Below the pieces are notes generated by a model. It worked only from the letters and a program-made list of their open reading frames with translations, did no database searches and was not told the DNA's origin. 64,000 nucleotides of DNA from a virus (taxonomy: Duplodnaviria; Caudoviricetes): the IMG/VR virus record IMGVR_UViG_3300034095_001474, positions 64,001-128,000 of that record; one strand, given 5' to 3'. A program made the position numbers and the translations under genes. Every line of letters begins with the position of its first letter. Position 1 is the stretch's first letter. This document shows positions 4,238 to 62,429 of this stretch, piece after piece.

Positions 4238-4936
4238 TTATTTTGATGATTTTGCGATATTATTTTCAATAATCAAGTATTCACCAGTAACACCCAACGT
4301 ATCAATCCCAATCATTCTATCAGTAATCGTTAGTTCTTTGAGTGTACTATGACCAACCACAAATGTATAGTCATCCAAACCATCTTGAAACAATGAAGGT
4401 AGTCTAACCCATAACGGAGATTGGGTGATATCATCACCACTTTGACTATAGTTATGACCCATCTGGAAATAGAAAGGCATTTTATTACTATAAAATAAAT
4501 CATTGATTGAATCTTGCAGCTTGTTTGGTAATCTGTTTACGTTATATGTAAGACACCATGTATTTGTAACACCAGCATGCGTAAATACATACTTATCGTG
4601 TACAAAACACATCTGCAAAGACTTATCAGATAGAGCATCTTCCAATATTTCGTTTATTTCTTTTACATTATGGTATTGGAAATTAGAATACGTCTCATTT
4701 ACACCATTCATATAGTGGAAATCATGATTACCTATAATAAGAACTACCTTATCTGGGTTACTACGTTTGAATTCTAGTATCTCTTTGAAGTTTGATACTT
4801 GGTCTTCTGGTGAAATACGTTCACGACTATCAAAATAGTCACCATTAAACACTATTTTATCAGCATCTGTTTCTTTTGATACAATATCTTTCCATATTGT
4901 ACGACCATGTGTATCACCTAGTGCTATTATTTTCAT
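4238..4936 (-). CDS. calcineurin-like metallophosphoesterase
   Basis: GDTHG, GDYFD, GNHD, HAG, GHS motifs. Confidence 0.9.
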   Translation of the reverse strand: MKIIALGDTHGRTIWKDIVSKETDADKIVFNGDYFDSRERISPEDQVSNFKEILEFKRSNPDKVVLIIGNHDFHYMNGVNETYSNFQYHNVKEINEILEDALSDKSLQMCFVHDKYVFTHAGVTNTWCLTYNVNRLPNKLQDSINDLFYSNKMPFYFQMGHNYSQSGDDITQSPLWVRLPSLFQDGLDDYTFVVGHSTLKELTITDRMIGIDTLGVTGEYLIIENNIAKSSK

Positions 4937-11790: not shown

Positions 11791-13746
11791 TTACAAACTA
11801 ATTAAACTCAAATTTATGTTCTTTTTCTCTATATCAACTGACGAAATAACTACATGTACCACGTCACCTAAACGTATGATATTCCCAGTGTTATGACCTT
11901 TTACTCTGTAGTTTTCAGCATCAGCAACATATGTATCACCAATGATTTCACTCAACCTTACAAGACCATCACAACCATTATCTTCCATAGTAATAAACAA
12001 ACCGTAATCAGTTACACTAGTAACCATACCCTTGAATATTTTACCCACCTTATCAGACATATAGATACATTGCATGTATTTGATACTATCTCTCTCAGCT
12101 TTTTGTGCTTTCTTCTCTCTTTCAGACAAGTGACCACACTTAGCATCTAGTTTTGCTATGTTAGGCAAAGATTTAGATGTACCATCTAAGTACATACCTA
12201 ACAATCTATGTACGATTACATCTGGATAACGTCTGATTGGACTAGTAAAGTGAGCATAGTTCTTGAACCCTAACCCATAGTGACCAATATTTTTGGTCAT
12301 GTAGTTAGCTTTTTGCATTGTACGTACAACCAAGTTGCTAATCATATCCTCTTCAGCGGTACCTCTAACATCCATTAGTAGTTTATTCAACGTACTTGTT
12401 GTTTCTTCTGGTGTACTTATCTTGATATCATAACCAAATTGTATTATAAAGTCTTTAAGTTGTTCTAACTTTTCTTCGTTAGGTTTCTCGTGTGCTCTGT
12501 TTACCATTGGAAACTGACGACTATTAACATATTGTGCAACATGTTTGTTTGCTAGCAGCATGTATTCCTCAATAAGTTTGTTAGAATCTTTACCAACCTT
12601 GAATATAATATCAACTGGTTTGTTATTTTTATCCAATTTGAACTTGATTTCATGTTTGTCGAATGATAAAGAACCTTTTTGTAAACGTACCTTACGCATT
12701 TTCTTAGCAATCTTATCAAGTGTTTTGATTGGTTGATGAAAAGGATATGCATATGCAACCTCTTCATGTGTTGATGTTGCTAGATATGGTATACCTAACA
12801 CATTTCCATGTTCTATTATGTTCTGTGCTTCTTCATATGTAAATCTCATATCAGAATTGATAACAGTTCTACCGAACCACTCATCCAACACATGACCATT
12901 GTGGTCAATTTTAAACACCACTGAGAAGCAAAGTTTATCTTCGTTAGGTCTTAGTGAACAAAGTCCGTTAGATAAGTTCTCTGGAAGCATAGGTACACAT
13001 CTATCTACAAGATAAACACTAGTTCCTCTACCATAAGCTTCTCTATCCAATTCTGTTTCTGGACGCAAATAATGTGATACATCAGCAATGTGAACACCAA
13101 CAAACAACTCACCGTTTACCCATTCAACACTCAGAGCATCATCGAAGTCTTTTGCATCATGTGGGTCAATAGTAAATGTAAGCACATTACGCATATCTCT
13201 ACGTTTTTCTATTTCTTCTTGAGTTATTTCAGTTGAGATTGCATCAGCTTCTGCGATTACATCTTCTGGGAAATCATATGGTAATCCATATTCTTCAAGG
13301 ATACTATGTATCTCTGTTTCGTGTTCACCAGCATCACCTATGATTCTAACTATTTTACCGTTAGGGTTCTTTGCGTTATCTTTCCAATCAGCCAATTGTG
13401 CAACAACCTTTTGTCCATGAGTTGCACCATTTAATTTATTCAAAGGAATAAAGAAATCGATTGCTAATTTGTTTGAGTCTGGGATAAAGAATGCAAACTT
13501 CTCGCTAATCTCAATTGTACCAACAAATTCTGTTCTGAATCGTTCGATTATCTCAATAACTTTACCTTCGATTGACCTTCCTTGTCCAGCAATTACCTCA
13601 ATTCTAACTGTGTCTAAATGTAACGCTTTGTTCGTTTTAGACTTATGTAAATAAATATCTTTTGGTAAGTCTACGCTAACCAAATATGCTGAACCACTTG
13701 CGTTCATACTTATTTTACCTTCTAATATGTCTCCTATTTTAATCAT
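11791..13746 (-). CDS. rnr: ribonuclease R
   Basis: TIDPHDAKDFDDA, HIADVSHY, HFTSPIRRYPD, C-terminal S1 domain. Confidence 0.95.
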   Translation of the reverse strand: MIKIGDILEGKISMNASGSAYLVSVDLPKDIYLHKSKTNKALHLDTVRIEVIAGQGRSIEGKVIEIIERFRTEFVGTIEISEKFAFFIPDSNKLAIDFFIPLNKLNGATHGQKVVAQLADWKDNAKNPNGKIVRIIGDAGEHETEIHSILEEYGLPYDFPEDVIAEADAISTEITQEEIEKRRDMRNVLTFTIDPHDAKDFDDALSVEWVNGELFVGVHIADVSHYLRPETELDREAYGRGTSVYLVDRCVPMLPENLSNGLCSLRPNEDKLCFSVVFKIDHNGHVLDEWFGRTVINSDMRFTYEEAQNIIEHGNVLGIPYLATSTHEEVAYAYPFHQPIKTLDKIAKKMRKVRLQKGSLSFDKHEIKFKLDKNNKPVDIIFKVGKDSNKLIEEYMLLANKHVAQYVNSRQFPMVNRAHEKPNEEKLEQLKDFIIQFGYDIKISTPEETTSTLNKLLMDVRGTAEEDMISNLVVRTMQKANYMTKNIGHYGLGFKNYAHFTSPIRRYPDVIVHRLLGMYLDGTSKSLPNIAKLDAKCGHLSEREKKAQKAERDSIKYMQCIYMSDKVGKIFKGMVTSVTDYGLFITMEDNGCDGLVRLSEIIGDTYVADAENYRVKGHNTGNIIRLGDVVHVVISSVDIEKKNINLSLISL

Positions 13747-15223: not shown

Positions 15224-15658
15224 TTAATCTTCTTTTTTTATTTCTATTTGTGGTGTAGTTGTTTCTGGAATGAAATCACCATAAACATAATCCGTATATA
15301 ACAACTCACCTCTAGGTGCACTCAATGGTGTTACTGAAACTATATCCGTACCCATAGTTCGTGCTGCTACTGCTAGGGCTATCGGAAATCCAATAAGGTT
15401 TTCTAATGTAGTCCAATAGAATTCTAAATCAACATTTGGTTTTTCTGAAACAGCCCAATCATTTATAATTAATTTGATTAGCACTTCTTCTATACCAAAA
15501 ACTGTGTTTATCTCCTTTAATAGTAGACTATAGTTATGTGGTGATTTCCATTTGTTTTGATTTAGTTTGTAATATATTCCATCGTTACCAATTTCGCTAG
15601 TGTCAATGTAATAGTATTCAAACAAATATTGTTGTACAAGTTTTTCCATGCACAACAA
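15224..15658 (-). CDS. hypothetical protein; C-terminus resembles a T4 gp23-type capsid segment
   Basis: FPIALAVAARTMGTDIVSVTPLSAPRGELLYTDYVYG. Confidence 0.55.
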   Translation of the reverse strand: MLCMEKLVQQYLFEYYYIDTSEIGNDGIYYKLNQNKWKSPHNYSLLLKEINTVFGIEEVLIKLIINDWAVSEKPNVDLEFYWTTLENLIGFPIALAVAARTMGTDIVSVTPLSAPRGELLYTDYVYGDFIPETTTPQIEIKKED

Positions 15659-41456: not shown

Positions 41457-41498
41457 TTATTCCTTTTTCTTTCGCTTGATGTTGATAAGTGTTTTCAT
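41457..41498 (-). promoter_or_regulatory. Lys-rich leader ORF MKTLINIKRKKKE
   Basis: mini-ORF plus hairpin directly upstream of two tRNA-Lys. Confidence 0.55.
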
Positions 41499-42554: not shown

Positions 42555-43208
42555 TTATTTCCTACCTTTTAACCATCCTTTATTAAGATAGGTATCTATT
42601 TCTTCTTTTTTAATTTTTTTGTTGGTACCATCTTTGGTTATCCAACATGTACCAAATTGTGAATTATTTTCACCACTTCCTTTACCTTTCATTACACTTT
42701 TAAGTAACTTTTTTGTTTCCTCAGAATGTTTCTTATTTTTAAAGTTACCTTCATTAGTCTCAAAATACTTTTTTTGAGACTTACTCATTTTATCTTTATA
42801 CTCTGGTGTTTCTTTTGCTTTAGCTATATTTAACATTCTTTGTTCTTTAGTGTTATTGAAATTGTTAATACCAGCTTCAGTGAAAACTTTTTTATGACTT
42901 TCAGACCAAATACGACCACCACCAGAACCACCCTCTTTTAAATTCATACAATTATTATCATTAATCATATCTGCGGTAATCGCTTTTATTTCAGCTTCAA
43001 TCAATAATTCTCTATTATCAAAGAACTCTAATATCTCTTTAACATGGTTTTTTTTACCATGTTTCCTTATACTATATCTTAATCTCTTTCCACTACCCAT
43101 ATAACCATCATACATGTTACATGTTGAGTGCATACCTATATAATATCTATTTGTCACCAAACAAGTAGTCTTATATAAGTAATGTATGTGCTTTTCTTTC
43201 CTTGCCAT
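42555..43208 (-). CDS. GIY-YIG (Seg-like) homing endonuclease with NUMOD3-type tail
   Basis: YLYKTT..YYIGMH..YMGSG..KEIL; KKHSEETKK. Confidence 0.88.
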   Translation of the reverse strand: MARKEKHIHYLYKTTCLVTNRYYIGMHSTCNMYDGYMGSGKRLRYSIRKHGKKNHVKEILEFFDNRELLIEAEIKAITADMINDNNCMNLKEGGSGGGRIWSESHKKVFTEAGINNFNNTKEQRMLNIAKAKETPEYKDKMSKSQKKYFETNEGNFKNKKHSEETKKLLKSVMKGKGSGENNSQFGTCWITKDGTNKKIKKEEIDTYLNKGWLKGRK

Positions 43209-43423: not shown

Positions 43424-43457
43424 AAAAAAACCCGAAGTCATTTCTGAAATCGGGTTT
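43424..43457 (-). terminator. attenuator terminator of cassette A
   Basis: AAACCCGA/TCGGGTTT followed by U tract. Confidence 0.8.
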
Positions 43458-43481
43458 GGAATATCTTGTAATTAAGAAACT

Positions 43482-43577
43482 TTATTCTTCATTACTCAAC
43501 AGATATAACACACCCGATACACTCGGCTTTCCGCCTTGCGTTTGTTTCGGTTGATATGTGATAAATGTTGTTTTCAT
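43482..43577 (-). promoter_or_regulatory. leader peptide A: MKTTFITYQPKQTQGGKPSVSGVLYLLSNEE
   Basis: 31-aa ORF between promoter and terminator; ATCGGGT complements ACCCGAT of the terminator. Confidence 0.75.
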
Positions 43578-43649
43578 AATTTCTCTTTTTTTTAAATGGG
43601 TTTTTAGCCCGTTGTTTTAATAAATATAACCTTCTTTCTAAAAGTTATA

Positions 43650-43681
43650 CAAATGTACGAACTTTATTTTGATTTGTCAAG
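43650..43681 (-). promoter_or_regulatory. promoter of cassette A
   Basis: CTTG-N20-TACATTTG. Confidence 0.7.
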
Positions 43682-54601: not shown

Positions 54602-54844
54602 ACTTTTTTTTCTTTTTTTACTTTTTTTTTTATTATATTATGATTATTATATCCTTTTTCTATACTACAAATATACGAACATTTTCTTTAAATGTCAAGT
54701 GTTTTTGTAATTATTTTTAAAAAATTTTAGTATTTAACTATTTGATTACCAATACTTTTCAATGAACTTTTTCTATACTACAAATGTACGAACTCTTTTT
54801 GAATAATTCAAACTTTTTTACAATTATTTTTATTTTTTTTTTTG

Positions 54845-55211: not shown

Positions 55212-55336
55212 TCGGAAGGGAAGGAATCGAACCTCCAAATAGCAGTCCCTAATAGTAGTTTTATGCTGAACATAATCTTTAAACAGATTAACTTTTTTTT
55301 ACATACTGCCGCCTTTACCAATTTGGCCACCTTCCG
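55212..55336 (-). tRNA. tRNA with ~51-nt anticodon-loop insertion (identity uncertain)
   Basis: CGGAAGG/CCTTCCG, GCAGT/ACTGC stem, insert with AATCT/AGATT hairpin. Confidence 0.6.
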
Positions 55337-55350
55337 AATTTAACTTTAAG

Positions 55351-55423
55351 TGGTGAGAGGTGGATTTGAACCACCGACACATGAGTTTTCAGCCCATTGC
55401 TCTACCAACTGAGCTATCTCACC
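55351..55423 (-). tRNA. tRNA-Phe(GAA)
   Basis: ASL ATGGG-CTGAAAA-CTCAT. Confidence 0.9.
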
Positions 55424-55611: not shown

Positions 55612-55700
55612 CTTTATTTTTAATACTTCAATGAACTTAATTTTAACACTGCAAATGTACAAACAATATTTGATATATGCAAATGTTTTTTATTTTTTTT

Positions 55701-56411: not shown

Positions 56412-56427
56412 TTTTAAATAGTTTTTG

Positions 56428-56500
56428 TGGAGATGATGGGACTCGAACCCACATCCTTTACCTTGCAAAGGTAACGCTCAGCCAATTGAGCTACATCCCC
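56428..56500 (-). tRNA. tRNA-Ala(UGC)
   Basis: G3:U70; ASL TTACC-TTTGCAA-GGTAA. Confidence 0.92.
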
Positions 56501-56583: not shown

Positions 56584-56657
56584 TGGCGGTCCATGAGGGT
56601 AACGCTCCCTCGTCTTCGCAGTGACAGTGCGAGATTCTACTTTTATACTAATGGACC
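56584..56657 (-). tRNA. tRNA-Asp(GUC)
   Basis: G73 with encoded CCA; ASL TCGCA-CTGTCAC-TGCGA. Confidence 0.85.
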
Positions 56658-56766
56658 AGTTATCAATTTTCTTTTATTTTCAGTCAGCGGCATTGATTGG
56701 CCTTTCTGTTAATCTTTATTTTCGACCTTTAATCCAACCTTCGTTTAGGTACAAAAAAGTCAATAG

Positions 56767-56838
56767 TACTCCCAGAGAGAATCGAACTCTCATTACCAGA
56801 TTGAAAACCTGGGGTCCTAACCGTTAGACGATAGGAGC
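56767..56838 (-). tRNA. tRNA-Glu(UUC)
   Basis: ASL CCAGG-TTTTCAA-TCTGG. Confidence 0.88.
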
Positions 56839-56909
56839 GTGTTATCTGTCTTTCCAGATTGCCATACTCATACTCTCCAATGAAACGTAACTTTCATTGC
56901 AAGCGTTTG

Positions 56910-56981
56910 TACTGCCACGGAGAATCGAACTCCGATTTTATGGATGAAAACCATAGGTCCTAACCGTTAGACGATGGCAGC
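56910..56981 (-). tRNA. tRNA-Glu(UUC)
   Basis: ASL TATGG-TTTTCAT-CCATA. Confidence 0.88.
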
Positions 56982-56987
56982 ATTTTG

Positions 56988-57060
56988 TGGTGATGGAGGG
57001 ATTCGAACCCCCGACACTCGCATCTTCAATGCGATGCTCTACCAACTGAGCTACATCACC
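56988..57060 (-). tRNA. tRNA-Phe(GAA)
   Basis: ASL TCGCA-TTGAAGA-TGCGA. Confidence 0.9.
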
Positions 57061-57142
57061 GTTATTGTTTTACAAATGTACAAACTCTTTTTCAATTATC
57101 CTAATTTATTTGTACTTTTTTTTTTATTTTTTTTCTATAAAC

Positions 57143-57175
57143 AAAAAAAGCTCTGATTTTTAGGTCAGAGCTTTT
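57143..57175 (-). terminator. attenuator terminator of cassette B
   Basis: AAAAGCTCTGA/TCAGAGCTTTT followed by U tract. Confidence 0.8.
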
Positions 57176-57198
57176 ATCAATTATGTTAAACGATTACG

Positions 57199-57291
57199 TT
57201 AACTTATGATAATAGATGACCTCCCCAAGCTTTCATCGGCCTCGGCTGCAAAGTTAAATGCAAAATCAAATATGTTAGTTAATGTTTTCAT
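57199..57291 (-). promoter_or_regulatory. leader peptide B: MKTLTNIFDFAFNFAAEADESLGRSSIIIS
   Basis: 30-aa ORF; AGGTCA..TTATCA complements TGATAA..TGACCT overlapping the terminator. Confidence 0.78.
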
Positions 57292-57358
57292 AGTTTTTCT
57301 TTTTATGGGTTTTAACCCGTTGTTTTAATTAAATATACCGTTGTTTCCAAAAGTTATA

Positions 57359-57390
57359 CAAATGTACGACATTTATTCCAATTTGTCAAG
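57359..57390 (-). promoter_or_regulatory. promoter of cassette B
   Basis: CTTG-N20-TACATTTG, near-identical to A and C. Confidence 0.7.
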
Positions 57391-57413: not shown

Positions 57414-57755
57414 TTATAAAGAATTTAAGTCTTTTACCTCTTTATGTTTGAATTCAGCACCATCTGTTGTTTTCATAGAAGGTACATATTCATATTCACC
57501 TTGGTACTTTTGTTTTAGATATTGCATCATTGCAGAACCATAACCTTTTCTTCTAAATCCTTCTCTAACTTCTATATGACTTACAGTTAACTCACCATCA
57601 TATAAAACATATTGAACAATACCCATTACATCGCCATTGATATATAAACCCAACTCATAATTATGTTGACCATCATAAGAATCTAAATGTTCTATCTTAT
57701 ATTCAACTTTTGGTTCAATCGATTCTCTTAATATTTGTTTTATAAAATTTTTCAT
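57414..57755 (-). CDS. GNAT-family acetyltransferase
   Basis: IEVREGFRRKGYGSAMM acetyl-CoA motif. Confidence 0.8.
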   Translation of the reverse strand: MKNFIKQILRESIEPKVEYKIEHLDSYDGQHNYELGLYINGDVMGIVQYVLYDGELTVSHIEVREGFRRKGYGSAMMQYLKQKYQGEYEYVPSMKTTDGAEFKHKEVKDLNSL

Positions 57756-60657: not shown

Positions 60658-60660
60658 ATA

Positions 60661-60692
60661 AAAAAAGCCCATCTAAATTGTTAGATGGGCTT
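60661..60692 (-). terminator. attenuator terminator of cassette C
   Basis: AAGCCCATCTAA/TTAGATGGGCTT plus U tract ending about 3 nt before tRNA-Cys. Confidence 0.85.
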
Positions 60693-60721
60693 CATATTGT
60701 TTTTGTTATTTAAGTCAAACA

Positions 60722-60796
60722 CTAACAAACATAGCCCACCCCGTCTACTGCAAGTAAACATAATAAAAGGACGTGTAATGTGTTAATTGTTTTCAT
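60722..60796 (-). promoter_or_regulatory. leader peptide C: MKTINTLHVLLLCLLAVDGVGYVC
   Basis: 24-aa ORF; GGTGGGCT..TTTGTTA complements TAACAAA..AGCCCATC. Confidence 0.78.
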
Positions 60797-60846
60797 AATT
60801 TTTCTTTTTGTTTCTATTAAATATACCCCTATTTCTAAAAGTTACA

Positions 60847-60878
60847 CAAATGTACGACATTTATTTCAATTTGTCAAG
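60847..60878 (-). promoter_or_regulatory. promoter of cassette C
   Basis: CTTG-N20-TACATTTG. Confidence 0.7.
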
Positions 60879-60933: not shown

Positions 60934-61263
60934 TTGAATATGGGATATGTTTATTTATTTTTAGAGGTTGATAAAGAAGGTAATGAAGCTTATAAGATTG
61001 GTATTACTAAAAATGAGCCAATCAAACGAGTGAAACAATTGCAAACTGGTAATTCACGCAAATTGACTTACCTTAAATCTTATAAATCAGAAAACTACTT
61101 AAAAGTAGAACGTTTTTTACATAGAAAATATATGATAAAAACTGAAGCTGAAAATGAATGGAGAACTCTTACTGATGAACAAGTTATTTCATTCATTAAA
61201 GATTGTGAGGAAGCTGATGAAAATATCAACTTCCTTTTAAAAAACAATCATTTTTATAAGTGA
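60934..61263 (+). CDS. GIY-YIG / T5orf172-like nuclease
   Basis: YVYL..YKIGIT..RVKQLQTGN..E..LH..NEW. Confidence 0.82.
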   Translation: MNMGYVYLFLEVDKEGNEAYKIGITKNEPIKRVKQLQTGNSRKLTYLKSYKSENYLKVERFLHRKYMIKTEAENEWRTLTDEQVISFIKDCEEADENINFLLKNNHFYK

Positions 61264-62429
61264 TAGAATTCTCTTCTAATCTTAATCAACAACTTGTTAA
61301 CCAATTCTGGGTCAATACCTTTAGGTAAATCAGATTCATCAAAAATCCTATCCATCTCTTTGATTTCAGCTTCTGCTGTATCAATAAGTGAATCTAAATC
61401 AATTTCGCCTCTACGAATAGACAATAGATATTCTCTATCTGGTCGTCTTACAATGATTCCTTCACCACGTCCAATTTCTTGTGACATTCTAATAAGTCTC
61501 ATACAATGCATCATATTCTTACCATCAATTTGTTGTCCATGTTTAACCGTATCAACGTATCTTGCAGTGTTTCTATTCTCAACCCATTCCATATATTCTT
61601 TATAGTCCTTGCAGTGAGCTGTATACCCATCTTTGTTGAACATGATGTTACAGATAGGTGTTTCACCCTTTGGAATACTTGATAAACGTAATTGATTGGA
61701 TTCAGCAGCATTATCAGAACCGCCAACCTTAGCAAGAGCCTTATAACCAAATCCCATCGCTTTACCTTGTGATTTTAACTCATTCTTCATAAATTCTCTT
61801 TGTTCTTCACTAAAAAACTCACCAAAACAAGCAGCCGCAATATTATCGTAAAAAACAGCATATAAATCTTTTGCGTGTGGAACATTGGTAATACCTAAGA
61901 ATTTTTCTTCATAACCCAGACCTTCACACCATTTTTTCCATGGAACTGATTGTTCACCTTGAATAACATAACAGAAATCCAACACATCTTTACGAGTAAC
62001 TGAACCTTGTTCTATGTTTTGTTTCTTGTTAAGACCTCTAGCTTTAGATATTTGTTGTACAGCATACCCACCAAATGAGTTCTTACACCCTTTGGTGATA
62101 AAATCAGCCTTGTGGTCCAATACATATTGAAACAATGGATGTTTTGTAATGATACAATCTTCTGGTGTGTTTAATAACTCCAATACTGTCGGATTTGAGC
62201 TTCCCATTAGTTCTAAGAACCTTTTAAGTTCCCAACCAGTATAATCCTTGTTTACGTTTAATTGTTCAACGTAACCAGTCCCTAAGATGTAATCTTGTGG
62301 TAAGATATATACAAACTTCTTATCAACATCAGATGTTGGAGTTTGTGTTCCATATGCTTGTGACCCAATGATACATTCAAATAGGATAAGCCCGTTTTGT
62401 TCTAAGTATTCGTGTGTAATCTTTTCCAT
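61254..62429 (-). CDS. Pol-beta superfamily nucleotidyltransferase (RlaP/YcgL-like)
   Basis: GSQAYGT..SDVD; KNMMHCMRL. Confidence 0.82.
   Translation of the reverse strand: MEKITHEYLEQNGLILFECIIGSQAYGTQTPTSDVDKKFVYILPQDYILGTGYVEQLNVNKDYTGWELKRFLELMGSSNPTVLELLNTPEDCIITKHPLFQYVLDHKADFITKGCKNSFGGYAVQQISKARGLNKKQNIEQGSVTRKDVLDFCYVIQGEQSVPWKKWCEGLGYEEKFLGITNVPHAKDLYAVFYDNIAAACFGEFFSEEQREFMKNELKSQGKAMGFGYKALAKVGGSDNAAESNQLRLSSIPKGETPICNIMFNKDGYTAHCKDYKEYMEWVENRNTARYVDTVKHGQQIDGKNMMHCMRLIRMSQEIGRGEGIIVRRPDREYLLSIRRGEIDLDSLIDTAEAEIKEMDRIFDESDLPKGIDPELVNKLLIKIRREFYHL

Follow-up and report, generated by a model that had tools for sequence, protein, structure and literature searches.

The locus described here raises the question of why, in the genome of a freshwater phage, an open reading frame of 30 codons followed by an intrinsic terminator should be placed between a promoter and a block of five tRNA genes. 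The locus, cassette B, lies within the window, by which we mean the whole 64-kb stretch of DNA analyzed, and all of its features are on the minus strand. Our answer, drawn from the sequence and from comparison with related loci, is that cassette B is probably a ribosome-mediated attenuator, which tunes the transcription of its Phe/Glu/Asp/Ala tRNA array to the speed at which its own codons are decoded. Four observed properties form the base of this reading: the anatomy of the cassette, the match between the codons of the leader and the array, the conservation of the reading frame and the covariation of leader and terminator. An attenuator had been proposed in a preliminary description of the sequence, and independent comparative evidence, in the form of a leader–array match found in seven cassettes, 31 in-frame leaders and the covariation, now supports that proposal.

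Cassette B runs from 57389 to 57143 and is laid out in the order promoter, 30-codon ORF and 11-bp intrinsic terminator, followed by a second TACATTTG box and the genes for tRNA-Phe, Glu, Glu, Asp and Ala. The promoter (57359–57389) combines a sigma-70-like −35 element, TTGACA (57389–57384), with N17 and a Bacteroidota-type −7 box, TACATTTG or TACATT(TG) (57366–57359), of the form TAnnTTTG that is typical of Bacteroidota. Promoters of this class, TTGAC-N17–21-TAnnTTTG, occur four times in the 64 kb, once at each of cassettes A, B and C and once ahead of a protein gene; this remaining copy (54668–54698, minus strand; TTGACA...TATATTTG) would drive a 211-aa ORF (54601–53966) without a Pfam match. 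The 5′ UTR of about 60 nt (57292–57352), common to cassettes A and C, has an A-rich stretch ahead of the ATG and a small hairpin, ACGGG/CCCAT, at 57320–57305, which is also found in cassette C. A Shine–Dalgarno sequence is absent and the start context is A-rich. Upstream of the cassette is the gene for a small GNAT acetyltransferase (57414–57755, minus strand).

The leader (57199–57291; MKT start, TAA stop) is, as read from the sequence, a short translatable ORF at the 5′ end of the predicted transcript, and it contains a cluster of candidate regulatory codons. Codons 8–20 (57232–57270; FDFAFNFAAEADE) had been described as specifying F, D, A or E with the exception of one N, and our own reading agrees, with Phe, Asp, Ala or Glu in 12 of the 13 codons and a single Asn. 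In the MFE fold, the end of this block forms part of a small hairpin (57224–57245), in which region 1, CCGAGGC (57245–57239, codons 16–18), pairs with region 2, GCTTGGG (57230–57224, codons 21–23). Another hairpin, GTTAACG/CGTTTAAC (57185–57203), sits at the stop codon, and hairpins of a similar kind are visible by eye in relatives. Between the leader and the genes that it would regulate there is an intrinsic terminator which, with the TGATAA (57179–57174) at its foot, occupies 57143–57179: the 5′ arm is at 57175–57165, the loop at 57164–57157 and the 3′ arm at 57156–57146, with a T-run to 57143, and the stem (57175–57146) has 11 pairs and a folding energy of −13.8 kcal/mol.

The array itself comprises tRNA-Phe (GAA; 56987–57060), two copies of tRNA-Glu (UUC; 56909–56981 and 56766–56838) and, as its last member, tRNA-Ala (UGC; 56427–56500), all called by both ARAGORN and Rfam, as well as a tRNA-Asp (GUC; 56587–56657) with an odd T-loop and an encoded CCA end, which was missed by ARAGORN and is called by the Rfam model only (44.8 bits); its identity was read from the anticodon loop CTGTCAC, in which GTC denotes Asp. 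All four tRNA types to which the sensor block had been matched, Phe, Glu, Asp and Ala, are present. Beyond the array, a second tRNA-Phe (55350–55423), with its own TACATTTG box (55652–55659) and a long, structured-looking leader, adjoins a 125-nt Rfam tRNA call (55212–55336, minus strand; 47.5 bits) that carries some 55 inserted nt around the anticodon and is not reported by ARAGORN.

How specific is the match between leader and array? Phe, Asp, Ala and Glu together account for 23% of the residues in the long ORFs of the window, and the enrichment of {F,E,D,A} in the best segment of leader B has a binomial p of 2e-7; no equal enrichment was found in any of 250 other window ORFs of 20–40 aa or in any of 20,000 random peptides of phage composition. 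Moreover, the match recurs in seven cassettes, each with a different amino acid set: cassettes A, B and C of the window, a fourth type on the 137-kb contig of a relative (G001), and three cassettes of Cellulophaga phage phi17:2. When codons 4–18 of every leader were scored against every array by one fixed rule, the leaders gave p values of 4e-4 to 2e-8 with their own arrays, and none below 0.02 with a foreign array. A T5-like Salmonella phage served as the negative control, and none of its 29 small ORFs ahead of tRNAs showed a match (minimum p 0.024).

Promoter and UTR are common to B and its sister cassettes A and C. Cassette A (60660–60877, minus strand) has a Leu/Val/Cys-rich leader followed by tRNA-Cys, Val, Val, Leu and Leu; its terminator abuts tRNA-Cys, with 4–10 nt from the T-run to the first tRNA and no promoter between. 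In cassette C (43430–43680, minus strand), codons 2–18 are nearly all for Lys, Thr, Tyr, Gln, Pro or Gly, and the ten tRNAs of the array are Pro, Pro, Gln, Tyr, Thr, Gly, Thr, Gly, Lys and Lys. Codons 4–20 of the fourth type are all for His, Trp, Ile, Met, Asn, Arg or Ser, and this leader precedes exactly the tRNAs for His, Trp, Ile, Met, Asn, Arg and Ser.

Other features adjoin these arrays. Directly ahead of the two tRNA-Lys genes of array C there is a 13-codon ORF (41457–41497, minus strand), which opens with MKT, contains five Lys codons and has after it a hairpin that lacks a good T-run. In the same array, a 217-aa ORF (42555–43208, minus strand) without a Pfam match separates the two tRNA-Pro genes, and a clear homologue of this ORF follows tRNA-Cys in the relative L001 (from 4872 onward); the different positions in the window and in L001 suggest that this gene moves within tRNA arrays, as homing-endonuclease genes do. 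Upstream of cassette A, a gene for an RlaP-family nucleotidyltransferase of the RNA repair pathway (61254–62429, minus strand; Pfam E 2e-21) hints, as an RNA-repair gene adjoining tRNA arrays, at a theme of tRNA damage.

The cassettes of phi17:2 and phi4:1 (KT962247; locus L002) are unannotated. Like B, they consist of a leader, a competing strand at about codons 17–22, a terminator and an array spelled by the leader; unlike B, they group the amino acids differently and have the promoter directly at the ATG, which would give a nearly leaderless transcript, and no sequence homology between the phi17:2 cassettes and cassette B is detectable. Two seeming outliers in the phi17:2 leaders, Lys and Cys, are accounted for by tRNAs that are absent from the GenBank record or labelled "pseudo" in it. 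In L002 (phi17:2_18), both ARAGORN and Rfam call a tRNA-Lys(UUU) at 12980–13052, where there is no annotation, and the "pseudo" tRNA at 15245–15318 has a Cys-like GCA anticodon loop. From the composition of the leaders, then, one could predict both a tRNA-Lys missing from the annotation of a published genome and the amino acid to which its "pseudo" tRNA belongs, a rule of use to annotators. Leader 2 of the same locus (12644–12763) is annotated as a hypothetical protein, with its start placed within the promoter.

Relatives of the B type were retrieved from viral and metagenome contigs by a neighbouring protein together with a DNA pattern from the leader. After filtering, 31 distinct peptides were obtained, each followed by a Phe/Glu/Asp/Ala array of varying order and copy number. 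All 31 leaders are open and in frame over 27–31 codons (one has 40, from an upstream ATG), and their indels are multiples of three. The retrieval pattern fixes part of the sensor block, and with that part excluded from the counts, in a sample which is still biased by it, 144 of the 155 variable block residues (93%) are F, D, E or A. Within the block, relatives exchange D for E, A for D and F for E, swaps that protein chemistry would not favour. The sole Asn of the window leader is Glu, or missing, in the closest length-matched relatives. Some of the relatives' arrays include additional tRNAs (Asn, Leu, Ser, Lys, Ile, Met), which are without counterpart codons in the leaders; ahead of relatives' Met and Arg tRNAs, a search for leaders found short mini-ORFs only, none of them convincing.

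A scan of bacterial genomes with the B-type pattern gave 49 hits, none of which was a short in-frame ORF followed by tRNAs; all 49 were rejected as leaders and are taken as chance matches, and the element therefore appears to be viral. A protein-based search for the locus with the 230-aa neighbour returned no relatives, and a DNA search of a phage collection with the window gave tRNA-level matches only, indicating that the phage of the window is not a deposited isolate in that collection. Two of the relatives encode suppressor-like tRNAs, at about 4601 in L015 and at 4510–4581 in L031, with the anticodons UUA ("Stop") and CUA ("Pyl") in the ARAGORN reading; these could alter the end point of leader translation. 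In another relative, L005, the truncated 5′ half of a tRNA-Phe (about 13590–13640) stands just upstream of an intact tRNA-Phe, between two promoter-like boxes.

A strand that could compete with the terminator is present in all of the cassettes: part of the leader, towards the end of the ORF, is complementary to the 5′ arm of the terminator. Across 32 distinct B-type pairs, leaders pair with their own terminators at a mean of −12.1 kcal/mol, against −9.5 ± 0.41 kcal/mol for permuted pairs (z −6.3), and none of 50,000 permutations was as good as the real pairs (p ≤ 2e-5); for the A type, p is 5e-5 (14 pairs). The B-type partners change together, as AGGUCAACCU:AGGUUGACCU, AGGUCGAG:CUCGACCU, GGAUGAGA:UCUCAUCC, GGUCAAG:CUUGGCC and CUGGGAGAGUCA:AGGCUCUCCCGA, and among the relatives, changes at the AGGTCA position go together with changes in the terminator 5′ arm. 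The distance from stop codon to T-run is about 43–55 nt in nearly all codon-matched cassettes.

In the window copy, the two 6-bp helices of the antiterminator given in the preliminary description, AGGTCA/TGACCT (57222–57217/57167–57162) and TTATCA/TGATAA (57212–57207/57179–57174), are present as described, the TGACCT straddling the end of the terminator arm and the loop. Beyond that anatomy there is a third competing helix, between GAAAGCT (57234–57228, codons 20–22) and AGCTTTT in the terminator 3′ arm (57152–57146), so that the 5′ strands of the predicted antiterminator occupy 57207–57234, inside the ORF. The core helix, AGGUCA:UGACCU, has 6 bp and −8.9 kcal/mol, overlaps three stem bases only, and pairs with its own terminator no better than with 5 of 13 foreign ones; as modelled, the antiterminator of the window is among the weakest of the family. 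An alternative structure excluding the terminator, located just 3′ of the regulatory codons, is found at the level of the family, and its helices are weak in the window copy.

Folding with a 30-nt ribosome mask predicts the alternative structure as the combination of GAAAGCU:AGCUUUU, AGGUCA:UGACCU and UUAUCA:UGAUAA. The predicted probability of the terminator is 0.85 with no ribosome and 0.96 with a ribosome at the stop codon, and drops to 0.31 with the A site at codon 15, where region 2 is freed from its small hairpin with codons 16–18; in these equilibrium calculations it is at least 0.75 at most of the modelled ribosome positions, codon 15 excepted. For a transcript that stops short of the 3′ arm, the predicted probability of upstream pairing of the 5′ arm is 0.62 with the ribosome stalled and 0.26 with the ribosome at the stop codon. 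A 1:2 hairpin of the same geometry is predicted in most of 24 distinct relatives, with modest support (mean z −1.0 against shuffled sequences), and a ribosome at the late sensor codons would presumably open it. Across the relatives, mask folding is noisy, many terminators having a probability of about 1.0 regardless of the mask. Given this noise and the narrow equilibrium window, it is the covariation and not the energies that carries the claim of an antiterminator.

The preliminary description also placed a second promoter box, at about 57072–57079, between the terminator and tRNA-Phe, and added that attenuation would come on top of a basal level. The box is there, one base away from that position: the inner promoter (57073–57104) consists of TTAGGA (57104–57099), about 18 nt and TACATTTG (57080–57073), and ends 12 nt ahead of tRNA-Phe. 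It is of the class TTnGGA, ~18–20 nt, TAC[A/C]TTTG, which is conserved 10–19 nt ahead of the first tRNA in 8 relatives and absent in 5 others of the B type, in which 4–10 nt from the T-run to the first tRNA leave no room for a promoter. The caveat was well placed. With a conserved tRNA-proximal promoter, the array need not depend on read-through, and in the window the most likely role of the attenuator is to provide inducible transcription on top of the basal level set by the inner promoter.

DNA of the window phage is found in many lake-water metagenomes, and contigs assembled from RNA libraries also cover the locus. In two metatranscriptome studies, contigs bridge terminator B (56981–57190 and 57067–57218); another covers leader B (57196–57346), and terminator A is bridged by one. 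These contigs, which may stem from contaminating DNA, give a weak hint of read-through of terminator B. In the two RNA runs, uncovered parts are not evidence of silence and contig ends are not transcript ends.

The inner promoter invites a different reading, in which the cassette forms a short transcription unit of its own and yields a small mRNA or RNA whose 3′ end is always at the terminator, the array is transcribed from the proximal promoter alone, and the terminator acts as an insulator. The conservation of the box so close to the first tRNA, the relative L007, in which about 800 nt including an ORF separate the cassette from the array, and the preference for the terminator in most of the equilibrium folding would all fit such a unit. 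It leaves unexplained, however, why seven leaders should each spell the amino acids of their own array and why leader and terminator arm should co-vary, and it has no promoter to offer in the five relatives and in cassette A, where a tRNA abuts the terminator; the RNA contigs that bridge the terminator also speak, weakly, against it. We regard this reading as distinctly unlikely. It is likewise unlikely that the leader senses decoding speed with Rho access, RNase processing or precursor stability as the output. The weakness of the core antiterminator in the window copy and the hairpin without a good T-run after the Lys-rich mini-ORF (41497–41457) would suit an output of this kind, but in all full cassettes a strong hairpin and a T-run follow the stop codon at a constant spacing, and it is specifically with the terminator 5′ arm that the competing strand co-varies.

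That the ORF encodes a functional small protein, with no connection between the tRNAs and its composition or position, seems very improbable. The peptide sequence is kept among relatives; however, residues as dissimilar as A and D or E and F are swapped provided that they stay within the set of the array, and the peptides of the A, B, C and fourth types, alike in their first residues only (MKT or MRT), are opposite in chemistry, being hydrophobic, acidic, polar and basic, respectively, and yet come with the same promoter, UTR, spacing and terminator logic. Chance, that is, an AT-rich intergenic region that happens to contain an ORF and a terminator, is hardly credible: short ORFs are common in AT-rich DNA, and the window has the 250 others of 20–40 aa, but none of these and none of the random peptides reaches the enrichment of leader B, and chance would have to provide seven cassettes that each match their own array as well as a covariation at a z of −6.3.

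An attenuator at cassette B would work as follows. Transcription would start from the TTGACA/TACATTTG promoter and a ribosome would translate the 30-codon leader. When Phe, Asp, Ala and Glu codons are decoded fast, the ribosome would arrive at the stop codon and cover or unwind the leader strands at 57234–57207; with these strands covered, the terminator (57175–57146) would form and the transcript would stop ahead of tRNA-Phe. When any of the four aminoacyl-tRNAs is scarce, the ribosome would linger in codons 8–20 and open the 1:2 hairpin, and the freed GAAAGCU, AGGUCA and UUAUCA would pair with the 3′ arm of the terminator, the arm–loop junction and the foot, respectively. With the terminator blocked, RNA polymerase would read into tRNA-Phe, Glu, Glu, Asp and Ala, and the tRNA products would relieve the shortage, closing a negative-feedback loop in which tRNA supply responds to any one of the four amino acids (OR logic). 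The second promoter, 12 nt ahead of tRNA-Phe, would provide the basal level beneath the attenuator. In this scheme, we infer that the leader is translated, that ribosome and RNA polymerase are coupled in a Bacteroidota-type host, in which direction the switch operates and what signal it reads.

The usual view of phage tRNAs is that they patch codon usage constitutively or make good the loss of tRNAs that host defences destroy, and we know of essentially no work on how phages regulate their own tRNA genes. It is quite possible, and we put it forward tentatively, that these phages run a complete self-tuning tRNA supply, in which four leaders partition all 20 amino acids into {P,Q,Y,T,G,K}, {F,E,D,A}, {C,V,L} and {H,W,I,M,N,R,S}, every one of the leaders controls the tRNA block behind it according to demand, and the circuit senses the depletion of host tRNAs, including that caused by anticodon-nuclease cleavage in host defence, and replaces precisely the lost tRNAs. 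Beside this reading we cite the RlaP gene (61254–62429), next to the arrays. On-demand expression of phage tRNAs is directly testable in the culturable Cellulophaga phages phi17:2 and phi4:1.

Our searches of the literature, full text included, turned up no case of tRNA genes described as controlled by a leader peptide. A scan of the whole window with Rfam at gathering thresholds gave tRNA hits only, with no T-box (RF00230) and no known leader family, and a T-box identity for cassette B was rejected on this ground. T-box riboswitches, like the proposed attenuator, sense tRNA charging and choose between terminator and antiterminator, but their ligand is uncharged tRNA itself, bound without the help of a ribosome, and their targets are synthetase and amino acid genes. 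The trp attenuator resembles cassette B in having sensor codons that share sequence with region 1 of a small upstream hairpin, a region 2 that pairs with region 1 or with the terminator, and a distance from sensor to T-run of similar size, about 80 nt. In cassette B, however, region 2 would pair with the terminator 3′ arm, the loop junction and the foot, through three short helices instead of one 2:3 stem, and an A-rich start context stands in place of a Shine–Dalgarno sequence. In pheST of E. coli, the Phe-rich leader peptide PheM attenuates a gene of the translation apparatus, as the leader of cassette B would, but the target is Phe-tRNA synthetase, a single amino acid is sensed and the locus is chromosomal. 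The enterobacterial ilvGMEDA, ilvBN and thr attenuators also have a short translated leader in which the codons for several amino acids are clustered, a terminator and an antiterminator, and the position of the ribosome decides between them; they differ from cassette B in controlling biosynthetic enzymes and in sensing two or three amino acids. The classical targets of leader-peptide attenuation are genes for amino acid biosynthesis, transport or synthetases, and downstream of cassette B there are five tRNA genes instead; it is this target that sets the cassette apart from the classical attenuators. Cassette B is encoded by a phage and its leader has codons for four amino acids, those of its sister cassettes for three to nine, which, if the attenuator reading is true, would make this kind of attenuator the most multivalent known. 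In contrast to ilv and thr, the product tRNA would be the very molecule that is sensed, so that the loop is direct, and this would be, to our knowledge, the first known case in which the product of the regulated genes is the molecule read by the sensor.
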